DNA of 64,000 nt. Source: an uncultured bacterium. Lineage in GTDB: Bacteria; Patescibacteriota; Patescibacteriia; Patescibacteriales; UBA12465. The stretch spans positions 705 through 64,704 of the forward strand of contig CAJAVM010000025.1 of the NCBI GenBank assembly GCA_903945435.1, given 5' to 3'. Below, one piece after another: positions 24,735 through 58,849 of the stretch. The notes under the pieces are model-generated. The model saw only the letters and a program-made list of their open reading frames with translations. It was not told where the DNA came from and made no database searches. The translations under genes were made by a program, and so were the position numbers. Numbering within the stretch: position 1 is the stretch's first letter; every line of letters starts with the position of its first letter.

Positions 24735-24738
24735 TTCA

Positions 24739-33346: not shown

Positions 33347-36300
33347 CTAGCTATTAATCTTTTTTCTAGTCACCGGCCCAAAAATTCCTATAGCCGGATC
33401 GATTTTATTAGCTTTTTGGAACTTAATAAGCGCGACCTTAGTTGCTTGACCAAAGTACAGAGTTTCTTTTCCCTTCGAGCCTACACCTGATTTAGAAACT
33501 GTATATCCGTGAAGATTAAGATATTTTTGTAATTCTCTAACATCATTGCTATTAGACCCTAACTTTAAATTATTCTTAAACAAAAATTTATTAGTCTTGA
33601 TAACGCTAGTAGTGGTTGCTGCGGGAGATAACTGGCTTACATCATTTTTGATTAAAGATTTCACTGTAATTTCAGCACGATTGATATAGGTATTAACAAA
33701 AGAAACTAAAATATCATTTTTTTTATCTCCATCCAAATCAACTTCTCGTCCCTCTCCTTTCTTAAGACTTATGGTCTGGGGTTTAGAAGAAATTGTTAAT
33801 GTAATAATATCAGTTGCTAAATTTAAATCGGAAATAAATAAGCTGTGGCCACCATCACTCCAACTGCTAGAACTTTCTGGGGCCACAAAATTAACTCGTG
33901 AATTAATATAACCCAAGATATTAACCCCATTTGAAGTCACAGGACTAATTGAGCGCACCTCGTTCATAGGAACAGAAATATCTGAAAGGCCACTACCAAT
34001 CGCGGCCGGTAAGGATATAGGATTATTGGAGATGATATCAGGGGCAGTCTCATCATCAACTGACGAGACAGAATAACTTAACCGAGATGCATTAGTTAAC
34101 CCATTACTATTGGTGCTATCAAGATTGATTAAGCCCGCGGTGGTTGGGTGTATTAAAAAAGTTTGAGTAGTTGAAGAATTAATAAAATTTAATATTATCG
34201 GGTTAAGACCAGCGCTACCAGAACCACTAGGAGTAATGGTAATATTACCAGTATATAAATCATCAGGGGTAACGGAGAAATAATCTGAATCAATATTTTC
34301 ATTGCCCGTAGCCGGACCAGAAAAACTAAAAGTGGTAGCTAGATAAATTTCAACAGATGCTGAAGCGGATGAAGAGATATTATTAGCTGAATCTTTGGCC
34401 CAAGCATAAATCATTTTACTCCCATAACTCGTAAACGTATGCGAACTAGGAGCGCTAGTACTCCAGGCAACATCATTTATCGCAGGTGCTGTAGATGATT
34501 CAGTTAAAGCATATCCCGTAACAGCAACATTATCAGAGGCGGTAAAACTATTAATATTAACCGTCAAAGAAGAGCTTGTTGCTTGTACAGAAAAAGAACT
34601 AACGGTCGGTACAGAAACATCGTTTACGACCGTAATAGGTTTATCAAAATGTACAGCCCAATTATATAATGTATTACCATACAGAGATGGCGCATTATCT
34701 GTATCACGTAGATTACCAGCAGCGCTACCACTATTTTGAGCACCTGGCGCTGACCCCGGAGTTCCAGTATAGGCATACCGTAAACGTTGACTATAACCCG
34801 TAGGGGTTCCGGATAAAGTTATTTTCACTGTATCAGCATCCAAGATTTCAACTGAATTAATTGTTGCTGAAGAGTTGGAGTCTGAATATTCAAAACCATA
34901 ATTAGCCCTTGCGGAAACCAAAGTAGTATCAAAAGCTAATTGGCCAGCTGGAACATGGAAATTTGCATAAATAATATTATTACTACGAACGATAGAATCT
35001 GGACTCAAAGGCCGCCACTGCTCTCTATCAATAATAACTTTTTTCATAATCTTTCCATAATATTCTCCTAACCATCTATAGCTTGTATTAGTTAAATGGG
35101 CATAATCCGAATAAGTTAAGAAGTATTTTGGACCAATAAGAAATATGCTATTAGGATTATTTTCCGCAGCCGCAAGTTGAGCCCCAGGAATAACTGAAGT
35201 AGCCGCATTATATCCAGTATAAGAGACCATTTGATCTGTAAAGAGTGGGACGTTATCTACCTGACCCGTTATTGCCTTAGCATCAGTTTCATAATCATTT
35301 TGCCATTCAACTAAGTAAGATTCGTATTCGGAAGCGGTTGTTCTCGCCTGATGATCAGCTTCACCATGAATAATCATTACCCCAGAAACTCTATCAGTCT
35401 TTCCCAAAACATTAGCAGCATTATAAACATTAGATATCTGAGTTAAGCCATTACTATAAACCGTGCTACCCTTTTTTAATCCAGAATAAGCAGTGTTTCC
35501 TAAAGCATTTAAAGTAGCGACTGCTTGATAGCTATTATTTTCAGATAACGCTGTTAAATTATTCGCCGCTGAACTACGTATAGTTTCCCGATTTGCTTCT
35601 GTTAAAGGGATAAACGTTACCCCTAGACCTTCGGTCCCTTCTAAAGTTTTATTGCTGTATGGTTGAGAAGACGATAAAACAGGGGTACCACCATACCCAA
35701 CAGCTAAGCTTTGCCCTGATAATAAAATATGATTAATAAAATCAACATTGGTTACTGGGCCAATAGCTAGACTAGAAACAGCATTGCCGATAGCCGGGCT
35801 AACTGTTGCAACTGGCGTAACTTCAAATTTTAAATATTTACCTAAATCACTTGAAGTAATTTTATATCTAATACTGGTAGCCCCAACAATAGGGGTATAT
35901 AACCCCAACAAAGAATCTGAACGCAGCCATCTATAAGTAGAGATAGCTTCTGTATCTCCATTAATATCATTAAAAGCATAAACTCCTAATACAACTTCAT
36001 TAGTAGCTGGTGCCCCTAAAATATAAGTCGAAGAAATAGTAGGAACTGTTGGTGTTCCAGAAACTGGAGTAGCGGTAACAATAGCCGATACATCGCCGTT
36101 ATTATTGCTACTAACAGCCGAGACTCTAAAGTTATATGCTAAACCGGTAGTAAGGCCGGTCACGACAGCTGCAGTAGAGGTAGAAACTCCATCATTAAAA
36201 GTATTCCAATTAGATAACTCGGAAACTAATTTATATTCGATGATGTAATCTATAATTTCAGATCCATTATTAGCAGTTGCAATCCAGTTTAAATTAATTT

Positions 36301-38224
36301 CTTCATTATTAGCAGAAGCTATAAGCTCAACTGGAGCATCTGGGCCAGACATATAACCCTTAACAGTTATGAACTTATACGTCGTTGCGTTACTAGAAGC
36401 TTTACTTTGCATCCAAACTGGCTTATTAGTAAAAGTTCCATCAGCTAAGACAACCGCAGCTGTATTAGAAGCATCTAAATAAACCGCTACTCCCCCCGTT
36501 TCTTGAGCAACTAATTTAATATTAACATCCTGATTATCGCCACAAACTACGCCAGGAATAGCAACGCCTAAACCGCTTTGGTTAACGCCATTGAAATAGT
36601 AATATAACAACCAAGAACTATTATTTTTAGTAATAAAATAAGCAGTCCCATTTCCAGTAACGGCATCTATATCTCCATATCCAAATTGCATAGTACTGCC
36701 GCTAGAACAACTCGTTGAATTCATTAAAACATTAACTTCAACATCTCCTCTTCTTCTATCAAACGGAATAACGGATTCCAATCCATTGGCATCCCAAATA
36801 TCATTACCAATAATAGTTAAGTGGTTATTTTGTTGTACTCTACCAGCAGAGCCACCATTACCACCAACAGCCGAATCAATCTCTCTCCATTTATTTACAT
36901 TAATTGTAGTACCTTGAAATTCATCAAGAAAAACAAAATTACCAGGAGTAAAAGATACTACAGTTGAAGGAGAGCTCGTCCCGGCAGCATTAATAGCCGA
37001 AACTCTAACGTCATAATTTAAATCATTACTTAAATTAGTTATTCGAGTTGAAGTAGCAATAGAAGTACCGTCATTAACTATAGTCCAAACACTTGGTTCT
37101 GAAGATAATTTATATTCAATCAAATAGTCAGTCACTGCCGCCCCGCCATCACTCAGTGGACTTGTCCAAGTTAACAAAGATTGAGCATTCTCATGACTAC
37201 TAGCAGTTAAATTTTGAGGAGCCGAGGCAGTACTTAAGGCTGGTGTACCAGTTGCGATTATTGAAGACGAACTTGTACCCATACCATTTACGGCCGAAAC
37301 TCTAAAATCATAAGACTGACCATTAGCCAAACCGGAAACTACAGCGGTGGTTGTAGTAGAAGTCCCATCCGCAAAAGTAGTCCACACGCTCGGTTCTGAA
37401 CTAAGCTTATATTGAACAATATAATCTATTAAATTAGAGCCGGCACTTGTCGCCGTTGTCCAATTTAAAGTCATCTGACCTACGGCCGGAGTAGTGACTA
37501 AATTTGTTGGGGCCAATGGCACATCGCTAGACGATACTAAAATATTATCAATAGTTATACTGGGATTAACAAGATTACTTTGTTGTTGTAATATAATCGG
37601 ATTATTATTATAGGTATTTGGTGCTTGAACAGCAGTCAGAGAAGCATTTGGGGTAGCCCTCCCATTAATATAAACATCAGCGCCCCCATTCTGTTTAATA
37701 ACTAATTTAAAATGCTGAGATGCTCCGACAGTACAAGTTACTCCTGTTAGATTACTCATGGCAGACCCACTCCATAATCTAAAACTAGTTCCATAAGATA
37801 CTAAACCAATTGTAGCGCCGCCTCCAGGAGCATTGCCGCCGGTCCAAGGACTATACATAACTGCTACTGAAAGCAAAGTATCAACAGAACAGCTATTATT
37901 AATAGTCCAATCCCCCTCAATAATTAAATCGCCACTCGACCTATCAAAAGTATTAATTGACTTCAGAGCATTTTTCCCCCAAGAGCCATTTCCAGTTATA
38001 GTTACCGCACCATTTTGCTGAACATTACCAGTAGAGCCTCCACTTCCACCAGCGGAAGAGTCATATTCCACCCATTTACTAGAATTAATTGTACTACCCA
38101 AAAAATCATCGGTTAAAAGAGTAGCTGCCTTAGTTGGCTTTAACAAAATAATAAAATTTAAAATAAAAAGAAAAAAGAAAAAAGAAAATTTTCTAGTATT
38201 AAATGGCGTTTTAATTTGTTTCAT
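33347..38224 (-). CDS. Giant secreted modular protein of 1625 aa. Domains are 2x LamG/ConA-like, FN3, a sialate-O-acetylesterase-like (SASA/SGNH) domain, Ig-like domains, the shared ~124-aa module, and a PG_binding_1 C-terminus.
   Basis: Signal peptide. Duplicated LamG-like segments (FLGSTINSSKWVEYDS.. and FQGTTINVNKWREIDS..). FN3 units (..YDFRVSAVNGMGTS). SASA-like LSGQSLAVGYGG and IIHGEADH. The C-terminus DVRELQKYLNLHGY...ATKVALIKFQKANKI matches PG_binding_1. Confidence 0.7.
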   Translation of the reverse strand: MKQIKTPFNTRKFSFFFFLFILNFIILLKPTKAATLLTDDFLGSTINSSKWVEYDSSAGGSGGSTGNVQQNGAVTITGNGSWGKNALKSINTFDRSSGDLIIEGDWTINNSCSVDTLLSVAVMYSPWTGGNAPGGGATIGLVSYGTSFRLWSGSAMSNLTGVTCTVGASQHFKLVIKQNGGADVYINGRATPNASLTAVQAPNTYNNNPIILQQQSNLVNPSITIDNILVSSSDVPLAPTNLVTTPAVGQMTLNWTTATSAGSNLIDYIVQYKLSSEPSVWTTFADGTSTTTTAVVSGLANGQSYDFRVSAVNGMGTSSSSIIATGTPALSTASAPQNLTASSHENAQSLLTWTSPLSDGGAAVTDYLIEYKLSSEPSVWTIVNDGTSIATSTRITNLSNDLNYDVRVSAINAAGTSSPSTVVSFTPGNFVFLDEFQGTTINVNKWREIDSAVGGNGGSAGRVQQNNHLTIIGNDIWDANGLESVIPFDRRRGDVEVNVLMNSTSCSSGSTMQFGYGDIDAVTGNGTAYFITKNNSSWLLYYYFNGVNQSGLGVAIPGVVCGDNQDVNIKLVAQETGGVAVYLDASNTAAVVLADGTFTNKPVWMQSKASSNATTYKFITVKGYMSGPDAPVELIASANNEEINLNWIATANNGSEIIDYIIEYKLVSELSNWNTFNDGVSTSTAAVVTGLTTGLAYNFRVSAVSSNNNGDVSAIVTATPVSGTPTVPTISSTYILGAPATNEVVLGVYAFNDINGDTEAISTYRWLRSDSLLGLYTPIVGATSIRYKITSSDLGKYLKFEVTPVATVSPAIGNAVSSLAIGPVTNVDFINHILLSGQSLAVGYGGTPVLSSSQPYSNKTLEGTEGLGVTFIPLTEANRETIRSSAANNLTALSENNSYQAVATLNALGNTAYSGLKKGSTVYSNGLTQISNVYNAANVLGKTDRVSGVMIIHGEADHQARTTASEYESYLVEWQNDYETDAKAITGQVDNVPLFTDQMVSYTGYNAATSVIPGAQLAAAENNPNSIFLIGPKYFLTYSDYAHLTNTSYRWLGEYYGKIMKKVIIDREQWRPLSPDSIVRSNNIIYANFHVPAGQLAFDTTLVSARANYGFEYSDSNSSATINSVEILDADTVKITLSGTPTGYSQRLRYAYTGTPGSAPGAQNSGSAAGNLRDTDNAPSLYGNTLYNWAVHFDKPITVVNDVSVPTVSSFSVQATSSSLTVNINSFTASDNVAVTGYALTESSTAPAINDVAWSTSAPSSHTFTSYGSKMIYAWAKDSANNISSSASASVEIYLATTFSFSGPATGNENIDSDYFSVTPDDLYTGNITITPSGSGSAGLNPIILNFINSSTTQTFLIHPTTAGLINLDSTNSNGLTNASRLSYSVSSVDDETAPDIISNNPISLPAAIGSGLSDISVPMNEVRSISPVTSNGVNILGYINSRVNFVAPESSSSWSDGGHSLFISDLNLATDIITLTISSKPQTISLKKGEGREVDLDGDKKNDILVSFVNTYINRAEITVKSLIKNDVSQLSPAATTTSVIKTNKFLFKNNLKLGSNSNDVRELQKYLNLHGYTVSKSGVGSKGKETLYFGQATKVALIKFQKANKIDPAIGIFGPVTRKKINS

Positions 38225-41023: not shown

Positions 41024-41026
41024 TTT

Positions 41027-41057
41027 AAAAAAGAGTTGTTAACGCAACTCTTTTTTA
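41027..41057. terminator. Bidirectional rho-independent terminator.
   Basis: AAAAA-AAGAGTTG-ttaacg-CAACTCTT-TTTTATTT lies between the convergent small ORF and the 1328-aa gene. Confidence 0.75.
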
Positions 41058-41064: not shown

Positions 41065-44000
41065 TTACTCTATATTCCCCACAGGAATTTGACGGAGGCT
41101 ATCATTAATTATTCCTAGAGATAAAGTGCGCATTATCTGATATGCAGCCTCACCATCTGCTAAATAATATCTGTAACCATTCCGGGGATTTATATACCAG
41201 GCCTCACCGCGATTCTCTACCTGTAACAAAATACGGCCCTGCAAACGCTTCACAAGAGAATCAGAATATAGAGTTTTGCTCTGTACAAAATTACTTGGTA
41301 GAGCTGAATCAGGAGCTACTGGGATTTTATTTAAATCAGCATTAGTTATCCCTAAACCAAACTTACGTAGTGCTTCATAGGCTGTCGGACCGTCCGCTAA
41401 ATAATAACGAGATAGTGATACAGAGTCTAAATACCAAGCCTGGCCCAACTTCTCAACTTGCAACAAAATATATCCAGCTAATCTTTTCGCTAACCGACTA
41501 TTTATTTTTATAGACAGTAGGCTTTCTTCGTTCATAACATCTATTTTATCAACAGCAGAACTTGTGTTTCCAATGTTACCTTGCAAAGATTTAACCGTAA
41601 TTTCTGCCCTATTAACAAAAACATCTACAAAAGTAATCACAATATCATTTTTTTTGTCGCCATCTATATCAGCTTCTTTGCTTTCTCCTTTCTGTAAAAT
41701 CATAGTTTGCGGCTCAGATGAAATATCTATTGTGATGATATTCGAGGATAAATTTAAATCAGAGATTTTTAAACTATGATTACCTGGCATCCAATTATTA
41801 GAACTCTCTGGAGCCATAAAATTAGCCTGAGAATTCATATAAGCTAAAATATTCACTCCGCCAGCACTAAGTGGAGAAATAATTTGAGCTGTGTTCATAG
41901 GAATAGATACATCAAATACACCGCTTCCTGTAGCAGCAGGCAATGAAATTGGTGCGCTATTACTGCTGGCGACATCCACAGCAAACTGGGCCACAACAGA
42001 CAAGTTATTAGTTATATTAATATCTGTTCTAGATGGTGTCAGTAAATCATCGGACCATTTAACAAAATGATAGCCGGAATTCGATACTGCAATTACCGCT
42101 GAGCCATTAGCACCGCTAACGACTGACTGAGCAGAATCTCCATTTAAAGTTCCCCCGGATTCCGCACTATATGATAAGGAATAACGAATCTGCTCATTTA
42201 CTGTAATAGTTAAATCAAAAGTAGTGTTGCCACCCGTATTACTTGCAGTGACGGTATATACAGTAGCACTAGAAGTCGCAGTTGGTGTCCCCGAAATAAT
42301 ACCAGTAGAGGTGCTAATGGCTAAACCCATCGGCAAGCTAGGCGAAATTGAATAAGTTAGTTCTTCACCAGTTACGGTTGGAGAAAGCGAGGTAATAGCA
42401 ATGTTTTCAGTATAAATATTTGGCGAAGTGTAAGATAAAGAACTAGGAGCTATATTATTAACTGCAATGGCTATATCAAAAGACGTGCTTCCTCCATTAT
42501 TAGTAGCCGTTACGGTATAGGTAGCCAAACTAGAAGTCGCAGTCGGTGTTCCTGAAATAACGCCAGTATCAGTATTTAAAGATAACCCAACTGGTAAACT
42601 AGGCGAAACGGAATAAGTTAGTTCTTCTCCAGTTACAGTTGGAGAAAGTGGAGTGATAGTACTATTCTTAATATAAGTATTTGGTGAAGTATAGGATAAG
42701 GAACTAGGGACAATATTGTTAACAGCAATAGCTACACCAAAAGATGTACTTCCGCCATTATTAGTAGCGGTAACGGTATAGGTAGTTAAGCTAGAAGCTA
42801 TGGTTGGCGCTCCTGAAATAACTCCAGTATCAGTATTTAAAGATAATCCAGCTGGTAAACTAGGCGAAACGGAATAAGTAATTCCTAATCCAGTTACAGT
42901 TGGAGAAAGTGGAGTAATAGTACTATTTTTAGTAAAAGTATTTGGCGAAGTATAAGATAAAGAACTAGGGGCCGCTAAAATATTCTCCTTGATTTCAATA
43001 GCGTTTAACATACCATAACCCCATGCGGCAACTTTAGGAGCAATTGTAATTTCTATCTCACCACTAACAGGTACGATATTTGTAAACTCTACAGTATTAC
43101 TCAAATTAGCCTTAACAATTAATTCTTTAGTTGTGCTAGCTATAGTATAGTTAGTCATAGTGTTATTACCAGTAGCGCCAGACGCGGAGGTATAACCATA
43201 TAATTTAACATTATAAGTCTTGATAGCTTCTAGGCCATAAATCTTAACCTTAGCTGGAGTGGTCACAGATGAATAAATTTGGGCTTTATCCATAATAACT
43301 GTATCAGGATAAATTGCAGAATTACTACCAGTCGAAACTGACTGCAGACTACCATTTTTAAAAGGGGCAGTATTTGCAAGCGCAAGAGTAGAAATCTGAT
43401 TATCTGAATCTCTTAAATTTAATAAATCGCCACAAGCAACAGCAGAAGTATTACCAACTGTAAAATAATTCCAATTATAACTTGGGTGATTAGCTGACGG
43501 ATAAGCCTTAGTTGTTGTAGCATTACCACAAAGAGAATCTACTCCATTTACATTGACATACCAAGTACGAAGAGGAACAACTATAGCATCCAACCTATCT
43601 GAATAAGCGGTTTTTATTGAGGCGGGATTCGTAGTTAAAAGATTGACGTATGCACGAGCTACGTCTATATCTGATTTTCTTTTACTCACCTCAGCAGCAG
43701 ACACCAATGCATTCACGCGAGTAATATCATTTTTTGAATAAGAATTAATACCCCAATCAAGATTTATGAGTCCAGTTGTTTTATTATCGGTATGATGTGT
43801 AAAATCAACCCCGTAATCAATACTACTTATTGCCGAATCAGCCTCAACAAGCAAAGAAAGAGCATGGTTTTTTAAATTAGCCGGAACATTAGTTACGTCG
43901 ATAGTAATAGTTAACTGATTACCAACTAATTCATGGCTAATAACTGAAGCTTGTTTAACCATCATGTAATTATAAACTTCTTCCGCACCAGCTACCCAAA

Positions 44001-45051
44001 TATTATCAGCCCCAAAACGACCATACGTATTCTCTACGTGATCCATTAAACTTTTCCAACTATTCCAAGTTGTACCGCCATTCCAATCGGGATAATAAGT
44101 ACTAGTAGTAATTTGATGGGTAAAAGCCTGACTCCAATATTTCGAAGAACCAGAACTTAAAGAGGCTAATTCATCAACGTGATTAAAAAGACCATTAGGA
44201 AATTCTCCTCCGGCAAGATATCTATATTCATAATCAAACCAACGAGGCATGACATGACGATCACTACTAATTGTACTAGTAACATCCGTGAATTTAGGAG
44301 CATTTATAGTACTATTATCAAACGGAAAGACGTTATTTTGAGCATAAACGGCATTAAAATTATTATCAAATGCTGGTTGAATATAGTTATCATCTCCATT
44401 TGGTAAAATCACTTGAGACATAGTAAACGGGGTAGTAGTCGCTCCGCTATCATTTCGAAGCGTAATATGACTAGCGACATCAACATTAGATTGCGTTAAT
44501 TCATAATCATAATCTAGCGTTCCCGTAGCATGGCCGCCGGGGTCGCCAATATAATATACCTCCTCCGGATCCCCAACTGTAGCAGAGATATACCCATGAT
44601 TAAAAACATTCCAACCATTATCAACAGCGTCTTGCAATTGCGTCCAGGTTATATAGCTCGGAGTATTTACATGAATATCGGAATAGTTAGCATTTCTAGT
44701 ATAAAACGCATAACCGCCGCGAAAAGGAACATTGTTCCCAGCGCCATCTGTAAAATATAGCCCGCCAAAATATTGACCGAGGTAGCTAGAATAACCGCCA
44801 TTCATATACTTAAAGGCAACATCATACCCCCTAACAATACCGTCATCGAAAGAATAGCTCCATGCAAAATCTTTATTATATTTTAAATGAGCTTTGGTAA
44901 CGCTAACTGAGCCTGGCGTTGGAGGAGTAGCAAAAGTAACTATAATAGTTTTAATATCAGCAGCCTGAGCATAATCAACTGAAGTTGCAAAGCTTGCAAA
45001 AAGTAAATTACACAGCAAGAAGATGGCTAGATATTGCTTAAGTTTTATCAT
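41065..45051 (-). CDS. Giant secreted modular protein of 1328 aa. Domains are an N-terminal NodB/CE4-deacetylase-like domain (tentative), 3x putative Ig (He_PIG-like) repeats, an InlB-type B-repeat, the shared ~124-aa module, and 2x a C-terminal ~55-aa repeat.
   Basis: Signal peptide, then FAWSYSFDDG. Three 87-aa repeats (LSYTSPNT..TYTVTATNNGGSTSF). YHFVKWSDD...VVAQFA is the B-repeat. The tail carries twin GRILLQVE..GEAWY..RYYL..GLGI repeats. Confidence 0.7.
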   Translation of the reverse strand: MIKLKQYLAIFLLCNLLFASFATSVDYAQAADIKTIIVTFATPPTPGSVSVTKAHLKYNKDFAWSYSFDDGIVRGYDVAFKYMNGGYSSYLGQYFGGLYFTDGAGNNVPFRGGYAFYTRNANYSDIHVNTPSYITWTQLQDAVDNGWNVFNHGYISATVGDPEEVYYIGDPGGHATGTLDYDYELTQSNVDVASHITLRNDSGATTTPFTMSQVILPNGDDNYIQPAFDNNFNAVYAQNNVFPFDNSTINAPKFTDVTSTISSDRHVMPRWFDYEYRYLAGGEFPNGLFNHVDELASLSSGSSKYWSQAFTHQITTSTYYPDWNGGTTWNSWKSLMDHVENTYGRFGADNIWVAGAEEVYNYMMVKQASVISHELVGNQLTITIDVTNVPANLKNHALSLLVEADSAISSIDYGVDFTHHTDNKTTGLINLDWGINSYSKNDITRVNALVSAAEVSKRKSDIDVARAYVNLLTTNPASIKTAYSDRLDAIVVPLRTWYVNVNGVDSLCGNATTTKAYPSANHPSYNWNYFTVGNTSAVACGDLLNLRDSDNQISTLALANTAPFKNGSLQSVSTGSNSAIYPDTVIMDKAQIYSSVTTPAKVKIYGLEAIKTYNVKLYGYTSASGATGNNTMTNYTIASTTKELIVKANLSNTVEFTNIVPVSGEIEITIAPKVAAWGYGMLNAIEIKENILAAPSSLSYTSPNTFTKNSTITPLSPTVTGLGITYSVSPSLPAGLSLNTDTGVISGAPTIASSLTTYTVTATNNGGSTSFGVAIAVNNIVPSSLSYTSPNTYIKNSTITPLSPTVTGEELTYSVSPSLPVGLSLNTDTGVISGTPTATSSLATYTVTATNNGGSTSFDIAIAVNNIAPSSLSYTSPNIYTENIAITSLSPTVTGEELTYSISPSLPMGLAISTSTGIISGTPTATSSATVYTVTASNTGGNTTFDLTITVNEQIRYSLSYSAESGGTLNGDSAQSVVSGANGSAVIAVSNSGYHFVKWSDDLLTPSRTDINITNNLSVVAQFAVDVASSNSAPISLPAATGSGVFDVSIPMNTAQIISPLSAGGVNILAYMNSQANFMAPESSNNWMPGNHSLKISDLNLSSNIITIDISSEPQTMILQKGESKEADIDGDKKNDIVITFVDVFVNRAEITVKSLQGNIGNTSSAVDKIDVMNEESLLSIKINSRLAKRLAGYILLQVEKLGQAWYLDSVSLSRYYLADGPTAYEALRKFGLGITNADLNKIPVAPDSALPSNFVQSKTLYSDSLVKRLQGRILLQVENRGEAWYINPRNGYRYYLADGEAAYQIMRTLSLGIINDSLRQIPVGNIE
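42188..42970 (-). repeat. Three in-frame tandem repeats of 261 bp (87 aa) inside the 1328-aa gene.
   Basis: The landmark aactagg recurs at 42441, 42702 and 42963, exactly 261 bp apart. The protein repeats are about 75-85% identical. Confidence 0.85.
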
Positions 45052-45061: not shown

Positions 45062-46264
45062 TTATTTTTTCTTGATTAGAATTTGAACATCATTAATATA
45101 GTCAGTTTCAAAACCTACTTCACAATAAATAAAGTAGTATAACCATTTTCTATAAAAATATTCATCGAATCCCAGTTGTTTAATTTCTTTTTCTCGAGCA
45201 ATAAAATTTTCCCTCCACTGATACAAAGTTTTAGCATAATCTTGGCCGATATAGTGAATATCGAGAATCTCTAATTTTAAACTAAAACTCTTTACTTGAA
45301 TTTGTTTTAAAGATAATAATTCTCCGCCAGGAAAAATATATTTCTTAATAAAGTTAGGGTCACGCAAATATTTTTGAAAGTGTTCATCGGGATAAGTAAT
45401 ACATTGCAAACACATCAAACCATCTTGCTTAATTAGTTTCTGACACTTACTTAAAAATAAAGGGACATATTCATAACCCAGAGCCTCCATCATCTCGATA
45501 GAAACAAGTTTATCAAAACTTCCCTCTAAATCACGATAATCACTTTTAATTAAGGTAATTTTATCTGCCAAATTTTCACTTTGAATAAGCGCCTCAACGT
45601 AAGCAAACTGCTCCTCAGAAATAGTAGTAATTGTTAGATGGCAACCATAATTTTTTGCAGCAAAAACAGCAAAACCGCCCCAGCCACAACCAATTTCTAA
45701 AACCTGGTCATCTTTATTCAATTTAATCTGTTCACAAATACGACGATATTTATTTTCTTGTGCTTCTTTTAAGCTATTACCCTTACGAAAAATCGCTGAG
45801 GAATAAGTCATGGTTTCATCTAGCCATAAACGATAAAAATCATTTGAAACATCATAGTGGGCACGAATATTATTTTTGCTTCCAGTCTTAGTATTTTTAT
45901 TACGCCAGTGTTCAACTTTTAGTCTCAAGTTAGCAAATTGAAATAAAGTAGATAAAATATTATTATCTCTAAATCCTGGTAACAACTCTTTATTTTGAAC
46001 AAACCACAACAAAACCTTTTTTAAATCAGGGGTAGTGAATTCTCCGAATAAAAAAGCTTCTCCAAAACCGGTATCACTAAATAAAATCACTCTCTTAAAA
46101 AAATTTTTATCTATTACTGTAATCCGCGCTAATGAGACCATACTTTGATTAGAATCATTACTCTGATTCTCGCCAAAAACATATTTACGATTATTAAACT
46201 CTAGCTCTAAAATTCCTCTAAATTTTTGATGTTTAAAAAATGTTAAAAATATTTTCCTATACAT
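45062..46264 (-). CDS. Cyclopropane-fatty-acyl-phospholipid synthase family SAM-dependent methyltransferase.
   Basis: SAM motif VLEIGCGWGGFA and CMAS-like length and flanks (AHYDVSNDFY). Confidence 0.8.
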   Translation of the reverse strand: MYRKIFLTFFKHQKFRGILELEFNNRKYVFGENQSNDSNQSMVSLARITVIDKNFFKRVILFSDTGFGEAFLFGEFTTPDLKKVLLWFVQNKELLPGFRDNNILSTLFQFANLRLKVEHWRNKNTKTGSKNNIRAHYDVSNDFYRLWLDETMTYSSAIFRKGNSLKEAQENKYRRICEQIKLNKDDQVLEIGCGWGGFAVFAAKNYGCHLTITTISEEQFAYVEALIQSENLADKITLIKSDYRDLEGSFDKLVSIEMMEALGYEYVPLFLSKCQKLIKQDGLMCLQCITYPDEHFQKYLRDPNFIKKYIFPGGELLSLKQIQVKSFSLKLEILDIHYIGQDYAKTLYQWRENFIAREKEIKQLGFDEYFYRKWLYYFIYCEVGFETDYINDVQILIKKK

Positions 46265-46271
46265 ATCTTTG

Positions 46272-47114
46272 CTACTCTTTTTTGTTAATTTTTCTTACTA
46301 TTTTTTCATCAGTCTCATCTTTACGATAAAATTTTACTTTTTTCAGGAATAACTTTAGAGCTTGATAATGAATTAAGATAATTGCCATTAAAGTTATCAT
46401 TGGATATCTTAGCATAACCCATATTAAACTGGAATTACTTAATTCTTTTCTGTTTCCTGTAAAAACAGTATGCAATTCTACTTCATCGTTTTTAACAGAA
46501 TCAATCGCCATCATTATTTTATCCCCAGGAACCTTAAACTTCCAATGCAGGTTGTTATCATAGTTGATAAAAGGTGAAATATAATAATTTTTCCTCTGGT
46601 TATCAGAAAATATTTCTGCGTCCGAATTATTAATTTTACAATAATACATTTTCTGATCGCCAAAAGTATTACTCACCTCGCTAAACATCGCCTTAAATTT
46701 ACCCGTCTTATCAAAACAATAATAAAAACTAACCGGATTAAATATATAACCAAAGTTTCTCAAACTTGTTAGAAGATAAACTTTATCAAGCTCAAACCCA
46801 AGCTTAAGCTCACCAATTAAAATTTTTAAACGCGCTTTAGTATTATTATTTAAGTATTTAGTCGCCTCAAAATTAGTAGTTTCTCGAGCGATGACTTCAG
46901 CATTACGACTTTTTTGTGAAACAAATTTAAAATGATCTTTATCAAAAAAACTAAGAGCATTCCATTTATTATATCCAAACAAAAACAACGCATGAGAAAG
47001 GTTTTCTAATTCATCCAAATCTAAATACACCATGTAAATTGAATATTTGAAAGAATTATTTCGCGGTTCCTGGCGTTTATGGATTAATTTTAAAGTATAA
47101 AGACAGGAATTCAT
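46272..47114 (-). CDS. DUF1365-family protein.
   Basis: CLYTLKLIHKRQEPRNNSFKYSIYMVYLDLDEL start, typical of DUF1365. It overlaps the upstream oxidoreductase by 4 nt. Confidence 0.6.
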   Translation of the reverse strand: MNSCLYTLKLIHKRQEPRNNSFKYSIYMVYLDLDELENLSHALFLFGYNKWNALSFFDKDHFKFVSQKSRNAEVIARETTNFEATKYLNNNTKARLKILIGELKLGFELDKVYLLTSLRNFGYIFNPVSFYYCFDKTGKFKAMFSEVSNTFGDQKMYYCKINNSDAEIFSDNQRKNYYISPFINYDNNLHWKFKVPGDKIMMAIDSVKNDEVELHTVFTGNRKELSNSSLIWVMLRYPMITLMAIILIHYQALKLFLKKVKFYRKDETDEKIVRKINKKE

Positions 47115-48367
47115 TTGCTTAATTTATTATTTTTTAAAATATCAACTACCTGCAAACCAGCCTTAATGCCATCTTCATGAAAACCATAACCAAAATAAGC
47201 GCCAGCAAAAAATATTCTAGTATCTTTATTTAATTCGGGTAATATTTTTTGAAGGGCAAAATTCTCTACAGTAAATAAAGGGTGATCGTAAATCAACTCT
47301 TTAACAATCTTCTTCTTATCTATTTCTTGAAAGGGATTAATAGAAACAAAATAATTAGTCTTGGTGTTAGGATGTTGTAATTCATTCATCCAATAGACTG
47401 TCGAAGATTGGCCATTCTCGCGATTAATAATGTGATTCCAGGAAGCCCAAGCATTTCTAATGGTTGGCATCACTGAAATATCCGTATGCAAAACAGCACG
47501 ATTACTACTATAACTAAATTTTTCCAACAATTGTCTTTTTTCAGAAGACAGTTCAGTCGCTAATTTCAAGCTCTCATCGGAATGGCTAGCTAAAATTACA
47601 TAATCAAAATCATAGCTTCCCTTTTCAGTAATTAACTGTACCCCATTTATAGTTTCTTTAACTTTCAAGGCGGCCTCCTTTAAATAAATATTAAAATTAC
47701 CTTGGTCAACTATTTTTTTAGTATACTCATTAGAACCACCTTTAACGGTATACCATTGAAACTGTCGATTAACACCGAGCAACCCATGATTATAGAAAAA
47801 TGGGATTATCAAAGAGATCGGTAAATCATAAGCGCTATGATGAGGCGTTGACCAGACCGCGGATGACATCGGAGCTAAATAATTATCTAAAAAATAGTGA
47901 GATAATTTTTTTCGCTCACAATATTGACTAATTGTTTCCTCACTTCCCCTAATAGATTCGCGCTCTTCTAGGGCCATCTTAAAAAATTTATTTATTTCAA
48001 ATAGAAACTTCCAATATTTTGGAGAAAGTAAGTTTTTTGGCTGAGAAAAAAGATGCAATAAACTGCTTCCAGAGTACTGAAGACCGGTCTTCTGATTATA
48101 TACCGCGAACGACATACTACTTTTTTGCTTTTCAACCCCTAATTCACTAAATAATTTAAGCAAGCTACCGTAAGTATGGAGATTAAAAACAATGAACCCC
48201 GTATCAATAGTAAACTTGCGTCCGTTATCTTCAAACTGATGAGTATGAGTATGCCCTCCTAAATAATCATTCTTATCAAAAATAGAGATTTCATAATCAT
48301 TACGCAAATAATGCGCACAAGTCATAGCTGAAATACCGGAGCCAATAATAGCTAGTTTCTTTTTCAT
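47111..48367 (-). CDS. FAD/NAD(P)-binding oxidoreductase, amine-oxidase/desaturase-like.
   Basis: N-terminal KKLAIIGSGISAMTCAHYL dinucleotide-binding motif and a C-terminal GAYFGYGFHEDG. Confidence 0.75.
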   Translation of the reverse strand: MKKKLAIIGSGISAMTCAHYLRNDYEISIFDKNDYLGGHTHTHQFEDNGRKFTIDTGFIVFNLHTYGSLLKLFSELGVEKQKSSMSFAVYNQKTGLQYSGSSLLHLFSQPKNLLSPKYWKFLFEINKFFKMALEERESIRGSEETISQYCERKKLSHYFLDNYLAPMSSAVWSTPHHSAYDLPISLIIPFFYNHGLLGVNRQFQWYTVKGGSNEYTKKIVDQGNFNIYLKEAALKVKETINGVQLITEKGSYDFDYVILASHSDESLKLATELSSEKRQLLEKFSYSSNRAVLHTDISVMPTIRNAWASWNHIINRENGQSSTVYWMNELQHPNTKTNYFVSINPFQEIDKKKIVKELIYDHPLFTVENFALQKILPELNKDTRIFFAGAYFGYGFHEDGIKAGLQVVDILKNNKLSK

Positions 48368-48374
48368 ATAACAA

Positions 48375-49139
48375 TTATTTAATCAAAAAGTTAGGCAACA
48401 TCGGCGGAGTTTTAGCGGCATATTCTTGAAATTCTAAATTTTCTTTATATCTTGCTTCGGCAAGTGGAACTCCAGAAACAAAACGTAGTAATAAAGTTAT
48501 TGTTATGGGTCCAATCAGACCAAGATAGAAATAATCAACTCCCCAAGTTACCAACCAAAGACCCCACCACAAAACCGCTTCGCCGAAATAATTAGGATGA
48601 CGAGTATATTTCCATAAGCCACTAGTCATAATCTTACCTTTATTTTCTTCCTGGCTAATAAATTTCTTCAATTGCTGGTCGCCAATAATCTCAAAACTCA
48701 GCCCAAAAGCCCAAATGATAATTCCCAAAAAATTAATCAGGATAGGATCACTATTATCAAAGCTGGTAACAACAATAAGACTAGAGGCTACTAATAATAG
48801 AGTAACTCCTTGTAACATAAATACTCGTAACCAAGAATTTAAGATAGAAAAGCTCTTCCAACTAGTACGCATATTTTGATAGCGCTTATCCTCTTCGTTA
48901 CTCTTTAAAAATCTGCGGCCAATATGATAAGCTAGGCGAAATCCCCAGAATGCAACCATAAAAGATATTAATAATACTCTAGGAGTTGGGTTAGAAAACC
49001 AACCAATCAATATTATTAAAACAAACCCCAGTCCCCAAGCGACATCAGCAATATCATTCCTTTTTTTAATTACTGCTATAACAAACCAAAAATTAATAAA
49101 AATGAACAAGGAGACGACCTGTAACCAAAAAGTATTCAT
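48375..49139 (-). CDS. DUF1295-family membrane protein, steroid-5-alpha-reductase/ICMT-like.
   Basis: [21 protein letters not shown] trimmed the start to the ATG at 49139 (MNTFWLQ) to remove a 100-nt overlap with the upstream gene. Confidence 0.7.
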
Positions 49140-49144
49140 AATTA

Positions 49145-49552
49145 TTACATTATATTTTTCGCAATAAAATACGTTACCACAGAGACTGATGAGGACAAGA
49201 CAATTCCCCAAATAATATCGATAATCACTATTTTCCAGGGCCAATCTTTCAAAACCGCTAAACTTGTTAAATCAAAAGTCATATAAGTGAAGAAGCCAAA
49301 CAACGCCCCATACAAAAGGGCATACGACCAAGAATTATTTTTCATTGCTGGCGAAATAACAAAAATAACTAGACCGATAATAAAAAGTAAATAAAACAGC
49401 ACGGCTACTGGCCAATTAGGCATTGGCCTCATTAAGTGACCCATGTGTTTCTGATATAAATCTTTAGCGATTACTCCCAGCCAAGTTAAATCAATAATGA
49501 AAAAAATAGGAACAGCTATTAAATAAAGCTTTACAAAGTTAATTACTGACAT
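49145..49552 (-). CDS. DUF2177-family membrane protein.
   Basis: [24 protein letters not shown] and four TM segments. Length 135 aa. Confidence 0.55.
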
Positions 49553-49566
49553 AAATGTATTTTTAA

Positions 49567-50070
49567 TTAGTTAATTTTATCTAATATTTTATTATCAACT
49601 AAATATTCTTCAATTTCTTCAGGCGTTACCATCGGCGCAAAACGTTTAAGAGGCTTCCCTGAGCGGTCTATTAAAAACTTAGTAAAATTCCATTTAACGC
49701 GTCCGCCTAATATTTCTGATAATTCTTTTTTTAAATAAACAAATAATGGATGTGCCTCCGAACCATTAACTTTTATCTTCTTAAAAATTGGGAAACTGAC
49801 TCCGTAGTTAAGCTTACAAAAAGAAACAATTTCTTCTTCGCTCCCCGGCTCTTGTCCGGCAAATTGATTACACGGGAAGGCTAAAATAATAAAACCTTGA
49901 TTATTATAATCTTGATATAACTTCTCTAACCCAGCGTATTGTTTAGTAAATCCACATTTGCTAGCCGTATTAACAACCAGAACTACTTTATCCCGATAAT
50001 CGGACATATTAAGCACTTGGCCATTAGCGGCTTCCGCTATAAAATCATAAAAATTAATCATATACTTCAT
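49567..50070 (-). CDS. Glutathione peroxidase family protein, Cys type.
   Basis: [14 protein letters not shown] active site, FPCNQF, and WNFTKFL motifs. Confidence 0.85.
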
Positions 50071-50104: not shown

Positions 50105-51631
50105 TTATTCTGCGCTATTTTCAGGTATCGCTAAAATCAAAATCAAATCCCATTTAATTTCTATCAACTGCAGAGCCTTATATCGAGAAACATTGAAGGA
50201 CTTCCAAGAATAGCCAGAAGAATATTCATAATAACTTTTTAAAGCAATGGCAACTTCTTTTGATAACTCCCGACCGTCCTTATCCTTTACCCCTGGAATT
50301 TCCAATAAGGACATAAGCCTAGGAACGGCATCAGCTGATAAAGACGCGAGATAGGTAGTATCTAATACGCCACTTTTTGCGAATTGATTGATATTTTGTT
50401 TAGTAACAAAGGCGTCGGGATTAATTAAATTAAATAAAATAAAAAAGGTGGTAATAGATAAAAATAGTCCAAAAATAAAAGAGCGGTCGTTAACATTTTT
50501 TATGATTTTACAACCCAACCAAAGGAATACGGCGGCTAACCAAATAATAAAGGCCTGTACTAAAATGCGGTCTAGAGTAAAGCCATATGCCTGTTCATAA
50601 ATCCCTAGTCTCATAAATGCTGACGCCATAATCACTAAAATTAACAGCACTAGAATACTCGTTAGAATTTTAAATACATTACTTGGTCTATCCTCGGTAC
50701 GTTCAATATATTTTTCCGCCAAAAAAATCAAACTAAAAGTAAGCAAAGCAACAGCAATTAGTTCGCCAAATCCTTTATGAGCATATTCCGCATATGTATA
50801 ACCCAATTTTGTTATAGCGTCATGACCAGCAAATAAATATTTGATTTGAATTACCACAAAGGTGAGAAATAAAGCACTCAATGTCGCAAATAATATACCG
50901 GCTTCAATGTTGCCAAACTTGTAGCTTCTAACCATCGGGAGGGGCGAAATATTATCTTGTGAACTAACATTTTCTAAAATATAAATATAAGCCCCAAACC
51001 ACAATATAGTAAAAATAAGGGTCAGCCAAATTTGAGTCGCCACATCAGGATTAACGCTGAAGTTAATATTAAATATACCGGCTACAAACTTGTTAAATAC
51101 TAAATCTGCTGATGAAAACAAAAAGAAAAAGAAGAGTGCAATAGGAAGAGTAATCAAAATACCTTTAACAATTTGTGAAGTTTGTTTCTTTCTTGAAGAA
51201 ATTTTTACCGAAGAAATCATGCGCCCAAAAGCGGTAAAAGATTTACCGAGCATATTAAAAGGTAAATGCACAATTGTTTTAAGATAATCAAAAAACAAAT
51301 ACTGTCTTATTTTAAAACCAATTGTATTTCGAGCTAATAACAGTAAAAAGCCAAAAGTTAATACAATATTCCAGAAACGCAAAAATTCATTTTCTCTCAC
51401 CCCAACCATCGCTGCAAAAAATAAGATTACCGGTAAAAACCAAAGTCCGGCCTTATTAAAAGAAATTTTAAATAAGAAAAGAAAACCGAATAGGCCAGTA
51501 CACAACAATATTACATATATTAAAAATGATATCCCAGCGAGCTGATTATAAAATAAATAATTAAAAATGAGCCCCAATAACAAGGACACCATTCCAACAA
51601 TATAAAGTTTTTTTGTAGAAATCGTATTCAT
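50105..51631 (-). CDS. Large polytopic membrane protein, DUF4153/DUF4173-like.
   Basis: About 12 TM segments and a C-terminal DTTYLASLSADAVPRL region. Confidence 0.4.
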   Translation of the reverse strand: MNTISTKKLYIVGMVSLLLGLIFNYLFYNQLAGISFLIYVILLCTGLFGFLFLFKISFNKAGLWFLPVILFFAAMVGVRENEFLRFWNIVLTFGFLLLLARNTIGFKIRQYLFFDYLKTIVHLPFNMLGKSFTAFGRMISSVKISSRKKQTSQIVKGILITLPIALFFFFLFSSADLVFNKFVAGIFNINFSVNPDVATQIWLTLIFTILWFGAYIYILENVSSQDNISPLPMVRSYKFGNIEAGILFATLSALFLTFVVIQIKYLFAGHDAITKLGYTYAEYAHKGFGELIAVALLTFSLIFLAEKYIERTEDRPSNVFKILTSILVLLILVIMASAFMRLGIYEQAYGFTLDRILVQAFIIWLAAVFLWLGCKIIKNVNDRSFIFGLFLSITTFFILFNLINPDAFVTKQNINQFAKSGVLDTTYLASLSADAVPRLMSLLEIPGVKDKDGRELSKEVAIALKSYYEYSSGYSWKSFNVSRYKALQLIEIKWDLILILAIPENSAE

Positions 51632-51632
51632 A

Positions 51633-51878
51633 TTAATAATTATTATATGTTTTATCCGATCTTCTCTCGATAGTTAAAATAGAATATTGGCCATCATCTT
51701 GTTTTTTAAAAATAATTCTTAACTTTCCTTTTCTAATACGAAAAATGTTATCACAGTTTTTTAGTTTTTTTAGGTCCAATCCAAATAAAGATTCCTCCTT
51801 TATTTTTAAAAGGATGTTTTTAATTATCTCTTTTTCCTTAGAGGATAAATTTTGTAATGCTTTAGCAATCTTATCCAT
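51633..51878 (-). CDS. RelE/ParE-family type II toxin.
   Basis: LKKLKNCDNIFRIRKGKLRIIFKKQDDGQYSILTIERRSDKTY matches the RelE-like core pattern. Length 81 aa. Confidence 0.65.
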   Translation of the reverse strand: MDKIAKALQNLSSKEKEIIKNILLKIKEESLFGLDLKKLKNCDNIFRIRKGKLRIIFKKQDDGQYSILTIERRSDKTYNNY

Positions 51879-51882
51879 AGCA

Positions 51883-52098
51883 TTACAAAGATGCTAAAAG
51901 TTCATCAATATTAACACCTCCCTTTTTAATTTTAGTGAAATTAATAACTTCCTCCCAACTATTATCTTCATCTATGGGGGTTAATTTAAAAAGCGGCTTG
52001 CTTTGTTTCAAAACAATAAAAGATTTTCCAGCTTTTACTTCATTAGCATATTTATCCATATTAAGTCGTAAATCTTTTAGGGCAACCAGGTTTTCCAT
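51883..52098 (-). CDS. Phd/YefM-type antitoxin.
   Basis: The 71-aa product starts LKDLRLNMDKYANEVKAGKSFIVLKQSKPLFKLTPI and lies 4 nt upstream of the toxin. Confidence 0.6.
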   Translation of the reverse strand: MENLVALKDLRLNMDKYANEVKAGKSFIVLKQSKPLFKLTPIDEDNSWEEVINFTKIKKGGVNIDELLASL

Positions 52099-53829: not shown

Positions 53830-54489
53830 TTATGATTTTCGGTTAATTATGATTTCACTCACCTCCATGTTTTTAGGAAGATCAAGTGTGTGTTTCAGCG
53901 CGAGCGCTACATCTTCCGCTCTCATCCACTCACTACCATCTGCGGTATTGTCTACTCCTGTAGCTTTTTCAAATAATTTAGTCTTAAACCCTCCTGGACA
54001 AAAACTAATCACTCGAGATTTTGTGCCTTTAAGCTCAAGCTGAAGATTGGCACTAAAACCACGCATCGCCCACTTAGAAGCGCCATAAACAGCTTGATCA
54101 AGATAACCTTTTAAGCCCACAGAGGATGCAACATTTACAATATCGGCTTCATCCTGTTTTATCTTTTTAATGAGATTAGAAATTAACAAAATAGCAGCCT
54201 TCACATTCACTGATAGCAGGCGATCAAATTCTGCTCCCGTTATTTTTTCTAATTTCTGAACTGATAAAACACCGGCGCAATTAATTATCGCTTCAATTTT
54301 TTCATCCATCTTTAATATTTCACTAACCGCTCCCTTTATTTCTTCTTCATTAGATAAATCGCACAGGATATTAGAATCGGTAAATTCTGATTTTCGTCTT
54401 GAAATATTTATTACCTTCTTGCCCGCTTCTTTATAAAGTTTCGCGACCTGCAAGCCTAATCCATCACTAGCTCCGGTAATTATAATCAT
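53830..54489 (-). CDS. Short-chain dehydrogenase/reductase (SDR).
   Basis: IIITGASDGLG cofactor motif and YGASKWA catalytic motif. Confidence 0.8.
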   Translation of the reverse strand: MIIITGASDGLGLQVAKLYKEAGKKVINISRRKSEFTDSNILCDLSNEEEIKGAVSEILKMDEKIEAIINCAGVLSVQKLEKITGAEFDRLLSVNVKAAILLISNLIKKIKQDEADIVNVASSVGLKGYLDQAVYGASKWAMRGFSANLQLELKGTKSRVISFCPGGFKTKLFEKATGVDNTADGSEWMRAEDVALALKHTLDLPKNMEVSEIIINRKS

Positions 54490-57878: not shown

Positions 57879-58352
57879 TTAAGAGTTATTTATTTTAGTA
57901 GCGAAATCATTTATCACATCCGACATTTTATCTTGAGCGACTTCTTTAGTTAATAAACTAAAAGAGGCTATCGGTTTTTTATTCAATAATTGGGCCATTT
58001 GTATAAAAGCCTTTTCAGCACCAGAGCCACCTTGAGTACAGAAAAAAGCAACTTTGTTTATTTTATCCTTTTGTTCAGTTAGTAAAGTTCTCACTGGAGT
58101 AGACATCGTCCAGGCCCAAACAGGAGTGCCAATAATTACTAATTCGTATTCATTTATATTGTGGATTAGCGGTTTTAATGTTGTTAATTTTTTAAAAGTG
58201 GCATCTCGTCCAGACAATAAATAGCCACTAGCGCCTGAGCGATTAACAGTATCATAAATCTCTTCTGTATCGGCATTAAAAATAACAGCCAATTTGTCGG
58301 CTACTTTTTTAGTCATGCCAGTACGAGAATAAAACAAGATTAAAGTTTTCAT
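57879..58352 (-). CDS. Flavodoxin-family protein.
   Basis: MKTLILFYSRTGMTKKVA FMN-loop start. Length 157 aa. Confidence 0.65.
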   Translation of the reverse strand: MKTLILFYSRTGMTKKVADKLAVIFNADTEEIYDTVNRSGASGYLLSGRDATFKKLTTLKPLIHNINEYELVIIGTPVWAWTMSTPVRTLLTEQKDKINKVAFFCTQGGSGAEKAFIQMAQLLNKKPIASFSLLTKEVAQDKMSDVINDFATKINNS

Positions 58353-58360: not shown

Positions 58361-58849
58361 TTATTTTATATAGCTATCAAAATATATAAAGTGACAAGTG
58401 TAGCCACCTGGATTTTTTTGTAAATAATCTTGATGGTAGTCTTCCGCTGGATAAAACTGTTGAAATGGCTCCACCGTGGTAACTACGGGGCTTTTCCATC
58501 TTTTTGATTTATTTACAATTTCGATAAAATTTTTAGCCTCTACTTCTTCTTCTTTACTACCAACAAAAATTGCCGACCGATAAGAAGAGCCAACATCATT
58601 ACCTTGTTGATTTAAAGTTGTTGGATTATGAATTTGAAAGAAAAAATCTAACAACTTTTTATAAGAAGTTTTTTCGGAATCATATTCTATTTCCACCGCC
58701 TCAGCGTGACCCTCATGATTTTCATAAGTTGGATTTTGAATATCTCCTCCAGTATAACCAACTCTAGTACTCAGCACGCCTGGCTGTTTTCGAATGAGCT
58801 CCTCCATTCCCCAAAAGCACCCGCCAGCCAATACGATTTTGTTGGCCAT
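58361..58849 (-). CDS. msrA: Peptide-methionine (S)-S-oxide reductase.
   Basis: [10 protein letters not shown] active site and YHQDYL. Confidence 0.9.

Follow-up and report, generated by a model that had tools for sequence, protein, structure and literature searches.

A six-gene cluster resembling the furan fatty acid pathway in a Falkowbacteria-like member of the Candidate Phyla Radiation

Introduction

In Rhodobacter sphaeroides, furan fatty acids (FuFAs) are made on phospholipid chains that already exist, and these chains are the substrate for every step of the pathway (Lemke et al. 2020, PMC7380195). UfaM (RSP2144, UniProt Q3J4I7), a protein of the CMAS family, methylates cis-vaccenate. 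UfaD (RSP1091), an NAD/FAD-binding and phytoene-desaturase-like protein, forms a conjugated diene. The third enzyme, UfaO (RSP1090), belongs to the DUF1365 family and, with O2, yields the furan fatty acid 9M5-FuFA (PMC7380195). In Rhodopseudomonas palustris, production of a methylated furan fatty acid requires the contiguous genes RPA2571 (ufaD)-RPA2570 (ufaO)-RPA2569 (ufaM), and these three are enough for it (PMC7380195). Pseudomonas syringae has a like arrangement, PSPTO_1118-1117-1116, and its cfa is the best match of UfaM. The furan-forming step is the only experimentally defined role of any DUF1365 protein. Here we describe a cluster of six genes that includes these three families. It lies at positions 45062-50070 of a 64-kb stretch of DNA (the window) on contig CAJAVM010000025.1, from an uncultured bacterium of the Candidate Phyla Radiation (CPR).

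Similar families are known from eukaryotes. The SAK1-dependent singlet-oxygen regulon of Chlamydomonas reinhardtii includes CFA1, CFA2, DUF1365, DUF2177, DUF1295, GPX5, MSRA3, and SOUL1/2 (PMC4067076), and the Arabidopsis proteins AtUFAMD1 (an oxidase-CMAS fusion) and AtUFAO1 (DUF1365) co-localise on lipid droplets (PMC10940516). CPR bacteria have been reported to be unable to make membrane lipids (PMC7242380, PMC12455944). In the literature that we searched, neither FuFAs nor this cluster were linked to CPR. The cluster type is known; what is new is the host lineage and the characteristic accessory set, and we claim no new mechanism. On balance, we favour the reading that the cluster is the CPR version of a FuFA membrane-antioxidant module that acts on preformed phospholipids, with a lipid-hydroperoxide peroxidase attached.

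Results

Six closely spaced genes form the cluster

The six open reading frames (ORFs) of the cluster all lie on the minus strand (Table 1). An earlier reading of this DNA, made from the sequence alone (the sequence-only reading), had described them as co-directional, tightly packed genes of named families. Pfam supported each of the six family names (E-values from 5e-18 to 3e-81), and the intergenic distances ranged from −4 to 14 bp (14, 5, 7, −4, and 7 bp along the set). The negative value is an ATGA overlap through which the oxidoreductase and DUF1365 genes share 4 nt. The same reading spoke of a set "fused" to a glutathione peroxidase (GPx). We observed that the GPx gene does adjoin the cluster, but the genes are separate and there is no gene fusion.

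The longest ORF for DUF1295, read from TTG 49244, would share 100 nt with DUF2177. We dropped this start for ATG 49139, because the gene callers and all close homologues give a protein of 254 aa. A scan for promoters and terminators was uninformative in this AT-rich DNA, where 75 promoter-like sites compare with 58±7 expected and 9 terminator-like sites with 8.6. Only two of the hairpins from the terminator scan looked credible (Table 1).

The core triad matches ufaD-ufaO-ufaM

The window oxidoreductase, DUF1365, and CMAS genes match ufaD, ufaO, and ufaM of R. palustris in their families and in gene order. The window DUF1365 protein belongs to PF07103, the family of UfaO. Encoded beside it is an NAD/FAD oxidoreductase of the phytoene-desaturase/amine-oxidase type, as UfaD is encoded beside ufaO. 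The sequence-only reading had linked members of such a cluster to the R. sphaeroides singlet-oxygen regulon and to furan or methylated fatty acids. This link was correct (UfaD, RSP1091; UfaO, RSP1090; UfaM, RSP2144). That reading had also stated that CFA-synthase-type enzymes act on chains already in phospholipids, and such chains are the substrate of every step of the characterised pathway (PMC7380195).

The oxidoreductase carries an N-terminal GSGISA dinucleotide-binding motif, and its best PDB match was the amine oxidase LkcE (3e-24). Its NCBIfam matches (protoporphyrinogen oxidase, carotenoid desaturases, and HpnE) were weak and all far under the cut-offs. By analogy with UfaD, we propose it as a putative acyl-chain desaturase. 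In an alignment of 139 homologues from many phyla, 23 positions reach a conservation of at least 95%, and the window DUF1365 protein retains them. Its AlphaFold2 (AF2) model (predicted local distance difference test score, pLDDT, 93) shows a beta-barrel to which long C-terminal helices are appended, with weak fold matches to FABP-like Ycf58 and to nitrobindin barrels. A sequence search of the PDB with DUF1365 found no relative. We propose, by analogy with UfaO, that this protein may be an O2-dependent furan-ring-forming enzyme.

The triad is conserved across about ten phyla

We performed a scan of GTDB species genomes, which gave at least 80 DUF1365 loci, mostly non-CPR, and CPR neighbourhoods were added one by one. 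The loci listed came from Bacteroidota, Leptospira, Planctomycetota, Verrucomicrobiota, Acidobacteriota, Gemmatimonadota, Cyanobacteria and Melainabacteria, Proteobacteria, Hydrogenedentota, and Patescibacteria. Neighbours were counted at the 52 loci, among the matches listed, whose flanks reached 5 kb or more on either side (the well-flanked loci). An oxidoreductase gene immediately upstream and a CMAS gene downstream of DUF1365, co-oriented and in the same order, were present at 52 of 52. This arrangement is far beyond chance. DUF1295 was found near DUF1365 (within 10 kb) at 39 of the 52 loci, DUF2177 at 4, and GPx at 1. The sequence-only reading had called the neighbourhood recurrent in Proteobacteria; it is recurrent and Proteobacteria are included, but it spans about ten phyla.

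In the non-CPR phyla (L005-L081, for example L040:6404-8402; also L089:4612-6444), DUF1295 is usually paired with a second CMAS-like methyltransferase of ~340 aa. The best solved relative of this protein is coclaurine N-methyltransferase (8e-79), which makes it FufM/LIME1 type, and a methylase of that type makes dimethyl-FuFA. We observed no DUF1295-adjacent FufM-like methyltransferase in the CPR module, so that a monomethyl FuFA at most would be expected from it.

The cluster recurs within the Parcubacteria group

The nearest named homologues of the window DUF1365 (77-78% identity) and DUF1295 (79-85%) are from Candidatus Falkowbacteria, including the closed genome CP066698.1. More distant homologues of both proteins are from Moraniibacteriota and other Patescibacteria, taxa in the Parcubacteria group. 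The closed 977-kb Falkowbacteria chromosome (L082) has the same six genes, and NUDIX, PEP-utilizer, and purF genes lie nearby as they do in the window. The contig is of CPR origin (Parcubacteria group, Falkowbacteria-like), in line with the sequence-only reading, which had called the genome CPR-like. That reading also held the cluster to be unusual for such a genome, which did not stand: besides the six-gene twin, a five-gene form (DUF2177-DUF1295-oxidoreductase-DUF1365-CMAS, without GPx) is present in a Moraniibacteriota metagenome-assembled genome (MAG), a 1.36-Mb Patescibacteria contig, and two GTDB Patescibacteria genomes. Because the closed Falkowbacteria genome has all six genes and other Parcubacteria-group genomes have five, the cluster is no one-off; it recurs in a part of the Parcubacteria group.

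A neighbour-joining (NJ) tree of DUF1365 placed all CPR-labelled sequences, together with roughly 100 database clusters from the top matches, in one diversified clade. This clade consists mostly of metagenomic proteins without a name and includes a Syntrophotalea-like subgroup. Syntrophotalea acetylenica CP015518 (L088:7006-11973) has the five genes in the same order, and two small, unannotated ORFs follow its DUF1295 gene. Its module is island-like, wedged between flagellar genes and a resolvase/Gp49-HTH (toxin-antitoxin) pair. The S. acetylenica DUF1365 nests inside the CPR clade in the NJ tree, which suggests horizontal exchange between CPR and Desulfuromonadota. CPR-type modules with 52-55% identity to the window also occur on L003 (CAZIGB010000020.1, labelled uncultured Gammaproteobacteria) and P0075 (labelled Woesearchaeota archaeon); both may be mis-binned. 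An additional CMAS/UbiE-like methyltransferase of 278 aa is encoded beside purF in the closed Falkowbacteria genome (L082:17644-18480); at this place the window has EamA, NUDIX, and SDR genes instead.

The mobile look of the Syntrophotalea module and the inconsistent database labels of near relatives would fit a cluster that does not come from a CPR cell, through mis-assembly or mis-binning of the contig, or that is a recently acquired, inactive passenger. We consider this very improbable. A closed chromosome carries the same genes and shared neighbours, and the window has gene content regarded as CPR-typical (type IV pili, giant surface proteins, and FemAB). The GC content of the cluster (0.29-0.34) is at the low end of, but overlaps, that of the remaining window (0.30-0.39). 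All six ORFs are intact, with 77-85% protein identity to relatives.

The methyltransferase lies outside canonical Cfa enzymes

The best NCBIfam match of the window CMAS protein was the Cfa model PRK11705 (1.7e-71), and its best PDB matches were Cfa enzymes. Such matches would be expected if the gene encoded an ordinary housekeeping Cfa, responsible for E. coli-like stress cyclopropanation and placed beside unrelated genes. We strongly disfavour this explanation, to which we give almost no weight. The window CMAS scored under every NCBIfam Cfa equivalog cut-off (NF008686, 241 against 400 bits; NF053839, 232 against 600; NF040703, 214 against 650). It is 31% identical to E. coli Cfa compared to 37-46% identical to DUF1365-linked CMAS proteins of other phyla. 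In addition, E. coli Cfa is not linked to DUF1365 or to an oxidoreductase, whereas the neighbours of the window type are kept at all of the well-flanked loci.

An NJ tree agreed with these scores. All DUF1365-linked CMAS proteins, including that of the window, formed one clade, and the Cfa enzymes of E. coli and L. acidophilus fell outside it. Thus the protein that the sequence-only reading had named a CFA-synthase-family methyltransferase groups apart from the Cfa enzymes of these two species; both this tree and the DUF1365 tree carry no support values and give coarse grouping only. The window CMAS and E. coli Cfa have a common CMAS fold, with use of S-adenosylmethionine (SAM) and of phospholipid-bound unsaturated chains on the Cfa side of the comparison. 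The window CMAS can be aligned to E. coli Cfa (6bqc) from residue 38 on, nearly over the full length, so that the region preceding the catalytic domain is present.

The ligands of bicarbonate in Cfa are C139, E239, H266, I268, and Y317, which are conserved in non-plant cyclopropane synthases (PMC3132707). At these five positions the window CMAS has S, E, Q, I, and Y; two of the five differ (C139 to Ser and H266 to Gln). Gln at position 266 was present in 79 of 79 members of the DUF1365-linked clade, and most members had Ser at position 139. The Ser/Gln signature separates the clade from Cfa but leaves the product unfixed, because cyclopropane-making plant synthases share it. Based on these sequence comparisons, we propose that the window CMAS is a UfaM-like phospholipid acyl-chain methyltransferase, distinct from canonical Cfa.

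Points that weigh against furan formation

Several observations count against the FuFA reading, and some of them favour a different product. In one alternative, the module makes another chain (cyclopropane, cyclopropene, methyl-branched, or dienoic only), and the substrate of DUF1365 and the oxidoreductase is this chain or what its oxidation yields. In plants, cyclopropane synthases combine an oxidase with a CMAS domain in one fusion protein; they carry the same Ser/Gln signature and yet form cyclopropane rings, making dihydrosterculate (PMC3132707). One such fusion, Arabidopsis AT3G23510, is similar to UfaM as well as to UfaD. RSP1089, the R. sphaeroides CMAS protein in the syntenic position, is dispensable for FuFA synthesis, and UfaM is encoded elsewhere in that genome (PMC7380195). 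The likeness of the window proteins to UfaM, UfaD, and UfaO comes from family, synteny, and clade membership, not from direct sequence placement.

The need for O2 is a second difficulty. Chemistry that depends on O2 is less to be expected in a strict anaerobe such as Syntrophotalea acetylenica, and yet this species carries the module. CPR are also usually regarded as anaerobes (PMC5220378), and FuFA chemistry needs O2 and a cis-unsaturated substrate. Moreover, we found no sigma-70 or ChrR-type domain among the scanned window ORFs of at least 110 aa or the precomputed Pfam hits. On the other side, furan formation is the one role that experiment has given to a DUF1365 protein. The triad was also inseparable at the well-flanked loci, which fits one pathway better than independent activities. 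We therefore hold a non-furan product to be possible but unlikely, and keep FuFA formation as the preferred reading.

Accessory genes: DUF1295, DUF2177, and GPx

The AF2 model of DUF1295 (pLDDT 94.9) had its nearest solved folds in the delta14-sterol reductase 4quv (probability 1.00, TM 0.55) and the steroid 5-alpha-reductases 7c83 and 7bw1. The matches to these three structures had a probability of 1.00 but TM-scores of only 0.52-0.58 and E-values of 1e-3 to 2e-2. An ICMT/PEMT-type methyltransferase fold was a weaker alternative. The model suggests that DUF1295 is a candidate NADPH-dependent membrane C=C reductase. The proteins closest to it, from Falkowbacteria and Moraniibacteriota, are encoded on the same contigs as DUF1365 matches.

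A reductase of this type, together with the weak matches of the oxidoreductase to protoporphyrinogen oxidase, carotenoid desaturases, and HpnE, would also suit a substrate that is not an acyl chain. The module would then act on a non-acyl lipid (host-derived polyprenyl, quinone, or sterol-like), with a phytoene-desaturase-type oxidoreductase and a sterol-reductase-type DUF1295. This seems to us quite improbable. The CMAS protein aligns with phospholipid Cfa enzymes nearly over its full length, pre-catalytic region included, and none of the NCBIfam matches of the oxidoreductase came near its cut-off. The characterised members of the triad work on phospholipid acyl chains, as the FuFA reading has it.

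In every CPR-clade locus (L002-L004, L082-L085, and L087), and also in Syntrophotalea (L088), the DUF2177 gene precedes DUF1295 and stands at the module's upstream end or close to it. It is a conserved accessory of the CPR-type module.

GPx had the yeast Hyr1/Gpx3 structure 3cmi among its best PDB matches (2.9e-49), with GPX4 entries at ~1e-38, and it scored far higher against GPX4 than against GPX1. In the alignment to 3cmi, the peroxidatic Cys (TASKCGFT; Cys, not Sec) and the resolving Cys equivalent to Gpx3 C82 are both kept. From established knowledge of this class, the enzyme would be expected to reduce lipid hydroperoxides using thioredoxin. Outside the window, the matches listed have GPx next to the module only in Falkowbacteria CP066698.1 and, beside DUF1295, in one Bacteroidota MAG (L049). 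The association made in the sequence-only reading stands for the window, its near relatives, and this MAG, but GPx is absent from the five-gene CPR forms; GPx is a local addition to the module. In the Bacteroidota MAG (L049:3504-4760), GPx adjoins a CPR-like DUF1295 (184 bits) just upstream of ufaD-ufaO-ufaM, an independent recurrence of the GPx-DUF1295 linkage.

Comparison with described systems

The CPR module resembles the FuFA pathway of R. palustris and R. sphaeroides in its three families, and presumably also in acting on phospholipid-bound chains in a context of oxidative or singlet-oxygen stress. It differs in the added upstream DUF2177 and DUF1295 genes and, in Falkowbacteria, GPx. 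It also differs in that the window has no sigma-E/ChrR among the scanned ORFs and no FufM-type methylase, and in that the host is presumably unable to make fatty acids. The sequence-only reading had seen no fab genes in the window; likewise, we found no fab or acc genes among the scanned ORFs of at least 110 aa in the 64-kb window. A PlsC-type acyltransferase is the only glycerolipid-assembly candidate that we saw in the window, and it bears on lipid scavenging.

A comparator from Rhizobium tropici CIAT 899, found by plasmid tblastn, is annotated but uncharacterised. Its pRtrCIAT899a cluster (RTCIAT899_RS18940-RS18985) has five of the six window families (DUF1295, oxidoreductase, DUF1365, CMAS, and DUF2177) at 28-40% identity; DUF2177 is 32% and the oxidoreductase 36% identical to the window proteins. 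The R. tropici cluster lacks GPx but contains genes beyond the six-gene set: a FufM-like second methyltransferase, DUF2147, TspO, and, next to it, a sigma-70/ChrR anti-sigma-E pair. Its gene order is unlike that of the window, with DUF2177 downstream and DUF1295 divergent.

The family set of the Chlamydomonas singlet-oxygen regulon is that of the window cluster plus the MsrA and SOUL genes found 8 kb away. The Chlamydomonas and Arabidopsis genes are dispersed eukaryotic genes that are linked by co-expression and form no operon, and in the plant the oxidase and CMAS are fused in one protein. Taken together, the operon in CPR, the cluster in R. tropici, and the regulon in Chlamydomonas connect DUF1295 and DUF2177 with the pathway, which offers a testable entry to the function of these two widespread families.

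Discussion

The proposed mechanism carries the chemistry over from R. sphaeroides and R. palustris, and its substrate would presumably be scavenged host lipid. SAM would be the donor of the methyl group that the UfaM-like CMAS attaches to a cis-monounsaturated chain, so that a methyl-branched trans-alkene forms. The UfaD-like FAD oxidoreductase would introduce a second, conjugated double bond, and the UfaO-like DUF1365 protein would insert one oxygen atom of O2 and close the furan ring. The resulting FuFA chains would quench singlet oxygen and lipid radicals in the bilayer. The Cys-type GPx would reduce lipid hydroperoxides, and its reductant is probably thioredoxin. DUF1295, with its reductase-like membrane fold, and DUF2177 are conserved accessories of the module.

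CPR are thought to build their membranes from the lipids of others and to be largely anaerobic. A pathway that edits phospholipids would let them tune and protect a borrowed membrane, and an apparently O2-dependent module would mark CPR lineages that face oxidative stress.

A more far-reaching version, which we put forward tentatively and regard as rather doubtful, is a membrane antioxidant cycle complete in itself ("make, use and repair") within a cell that has no fatty acid synthesis. Scavenged host phospholipids would be turned into furan lipids, DUF1295 and DUF2177 would process or detoxify the dioxoenes that arise when the furan traps singlet oxygen or radicals, and GPx would clear hydroperoxides. 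If this were true, it would give the first biochemical roles for DUF1295 and DUF2177. It would also imply adaptation of some Parcubacteria-group CPR to O2 or photo-oxidative conditions that they regularly meet.

Other genes of the window

Table 1. Coordinates of the cluster genes and of other features in the 64-kb window
Feature	Position	Strand	Matches and remarks
GPx (Cys-type glutathione-peroxidase family, thiol peroxidase)	49567-50070	-	PF00255 2.4e-42; first gene of the set
DUF2177 small membrane protein	49145-49552	-	PF09945 7.2e-48
DUF1295 integral membrane protein	48375-49139	-	PF06966 1.1e-62; PF02544 1.4e-9
UfaD-like FAD oxidoreductase (amine-oxidase/phytoene-desaturase superfamily)	47111-48367	-	PF01593 5.1e-18; PF13450 6e-14
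UfaO-like DUF1365 protein	46272-47114	-	PF07103 8.4e-65, profile positions 1-234 of 235
UfaM-like CMAS-family SAM-dependent methyltransferase	45062-46264	-	PF02353 3.3e-81
Flavodoxin	57879-58352	-	Pfam 7e-13
MsrA	58361-58849	-	Pfam 5e-61
SOUL haem-binding protein	58856-59485	-	Pfam 2e-43
Type IV pilus set	3245-14903	-	four pilin-like proteins with N_methyl motifs, PilC (T2SSF), PilB (T2SSE), PilM
MBOAT and AlgX-like SGNH pair	23607-26181	-	
PlsC-type acyltransferase	28856-29668	+	
Giant predicted surface protein	33347-38224	-	1625 aa; fn3, SASA, PG_binding domains
Giant predicted surface protein (He_PIG)	41065-45051	-	1328 aa; He_PIG, InlB B-repeat
DUF4153	50105-51631		
Two small ORFs	51633-52098	-	71 and 81 aa
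SDR	53830-54489		possible RSP1087 analogue
Hairpin	41026-41057		
Hairpin beside purF	52201-52173		terminator-like

We considered three neighbouring genes as members of the module and rejected them. The adjacency of DUF4153, of the He_PIG surface protein, and of the SDR gene to the module was not conserved in L082, L084, and L087. The He_PIG gene starts 10 bp past the CMAS stop. purF and a terminator-like hairpin stand between the SDR gene and the module.

The flavodoxin, MsrA, and SOUL genes form a row ~8 kb upstream of the lipid cluster, outside the module. Elsewhere, linkage of these genes to DUF1365 was sporadic (SOUL in L010, MsrA in L080). The row may be a second oxidative-stress islet and is possibly associated with the lipid cluster.

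FemAB and YbeY genes are interspersed in the type IV pilus set. The MBOAT and AlgX-like SGNH pair probably serves glycan or teichoic-acid O-acylation. Other genes of the window include those for ThrRS, TerC, DedA, purF, NUDIX, and SDR proteins. tRNA and Rfam scans of the window found none. GC skew is negative almost throughout, its cumulative value falling steadily to −7.3, and the minus strand carries most of the genes, as would fit a single replichore. The two small ORFs lie between the purF hairpin and DUF4153, and the pair recurs on a second contig. The first has a weak PhD/YefM antitoxin match (1.8e-4), so the two may be a type II toxin-antitoxin pair.

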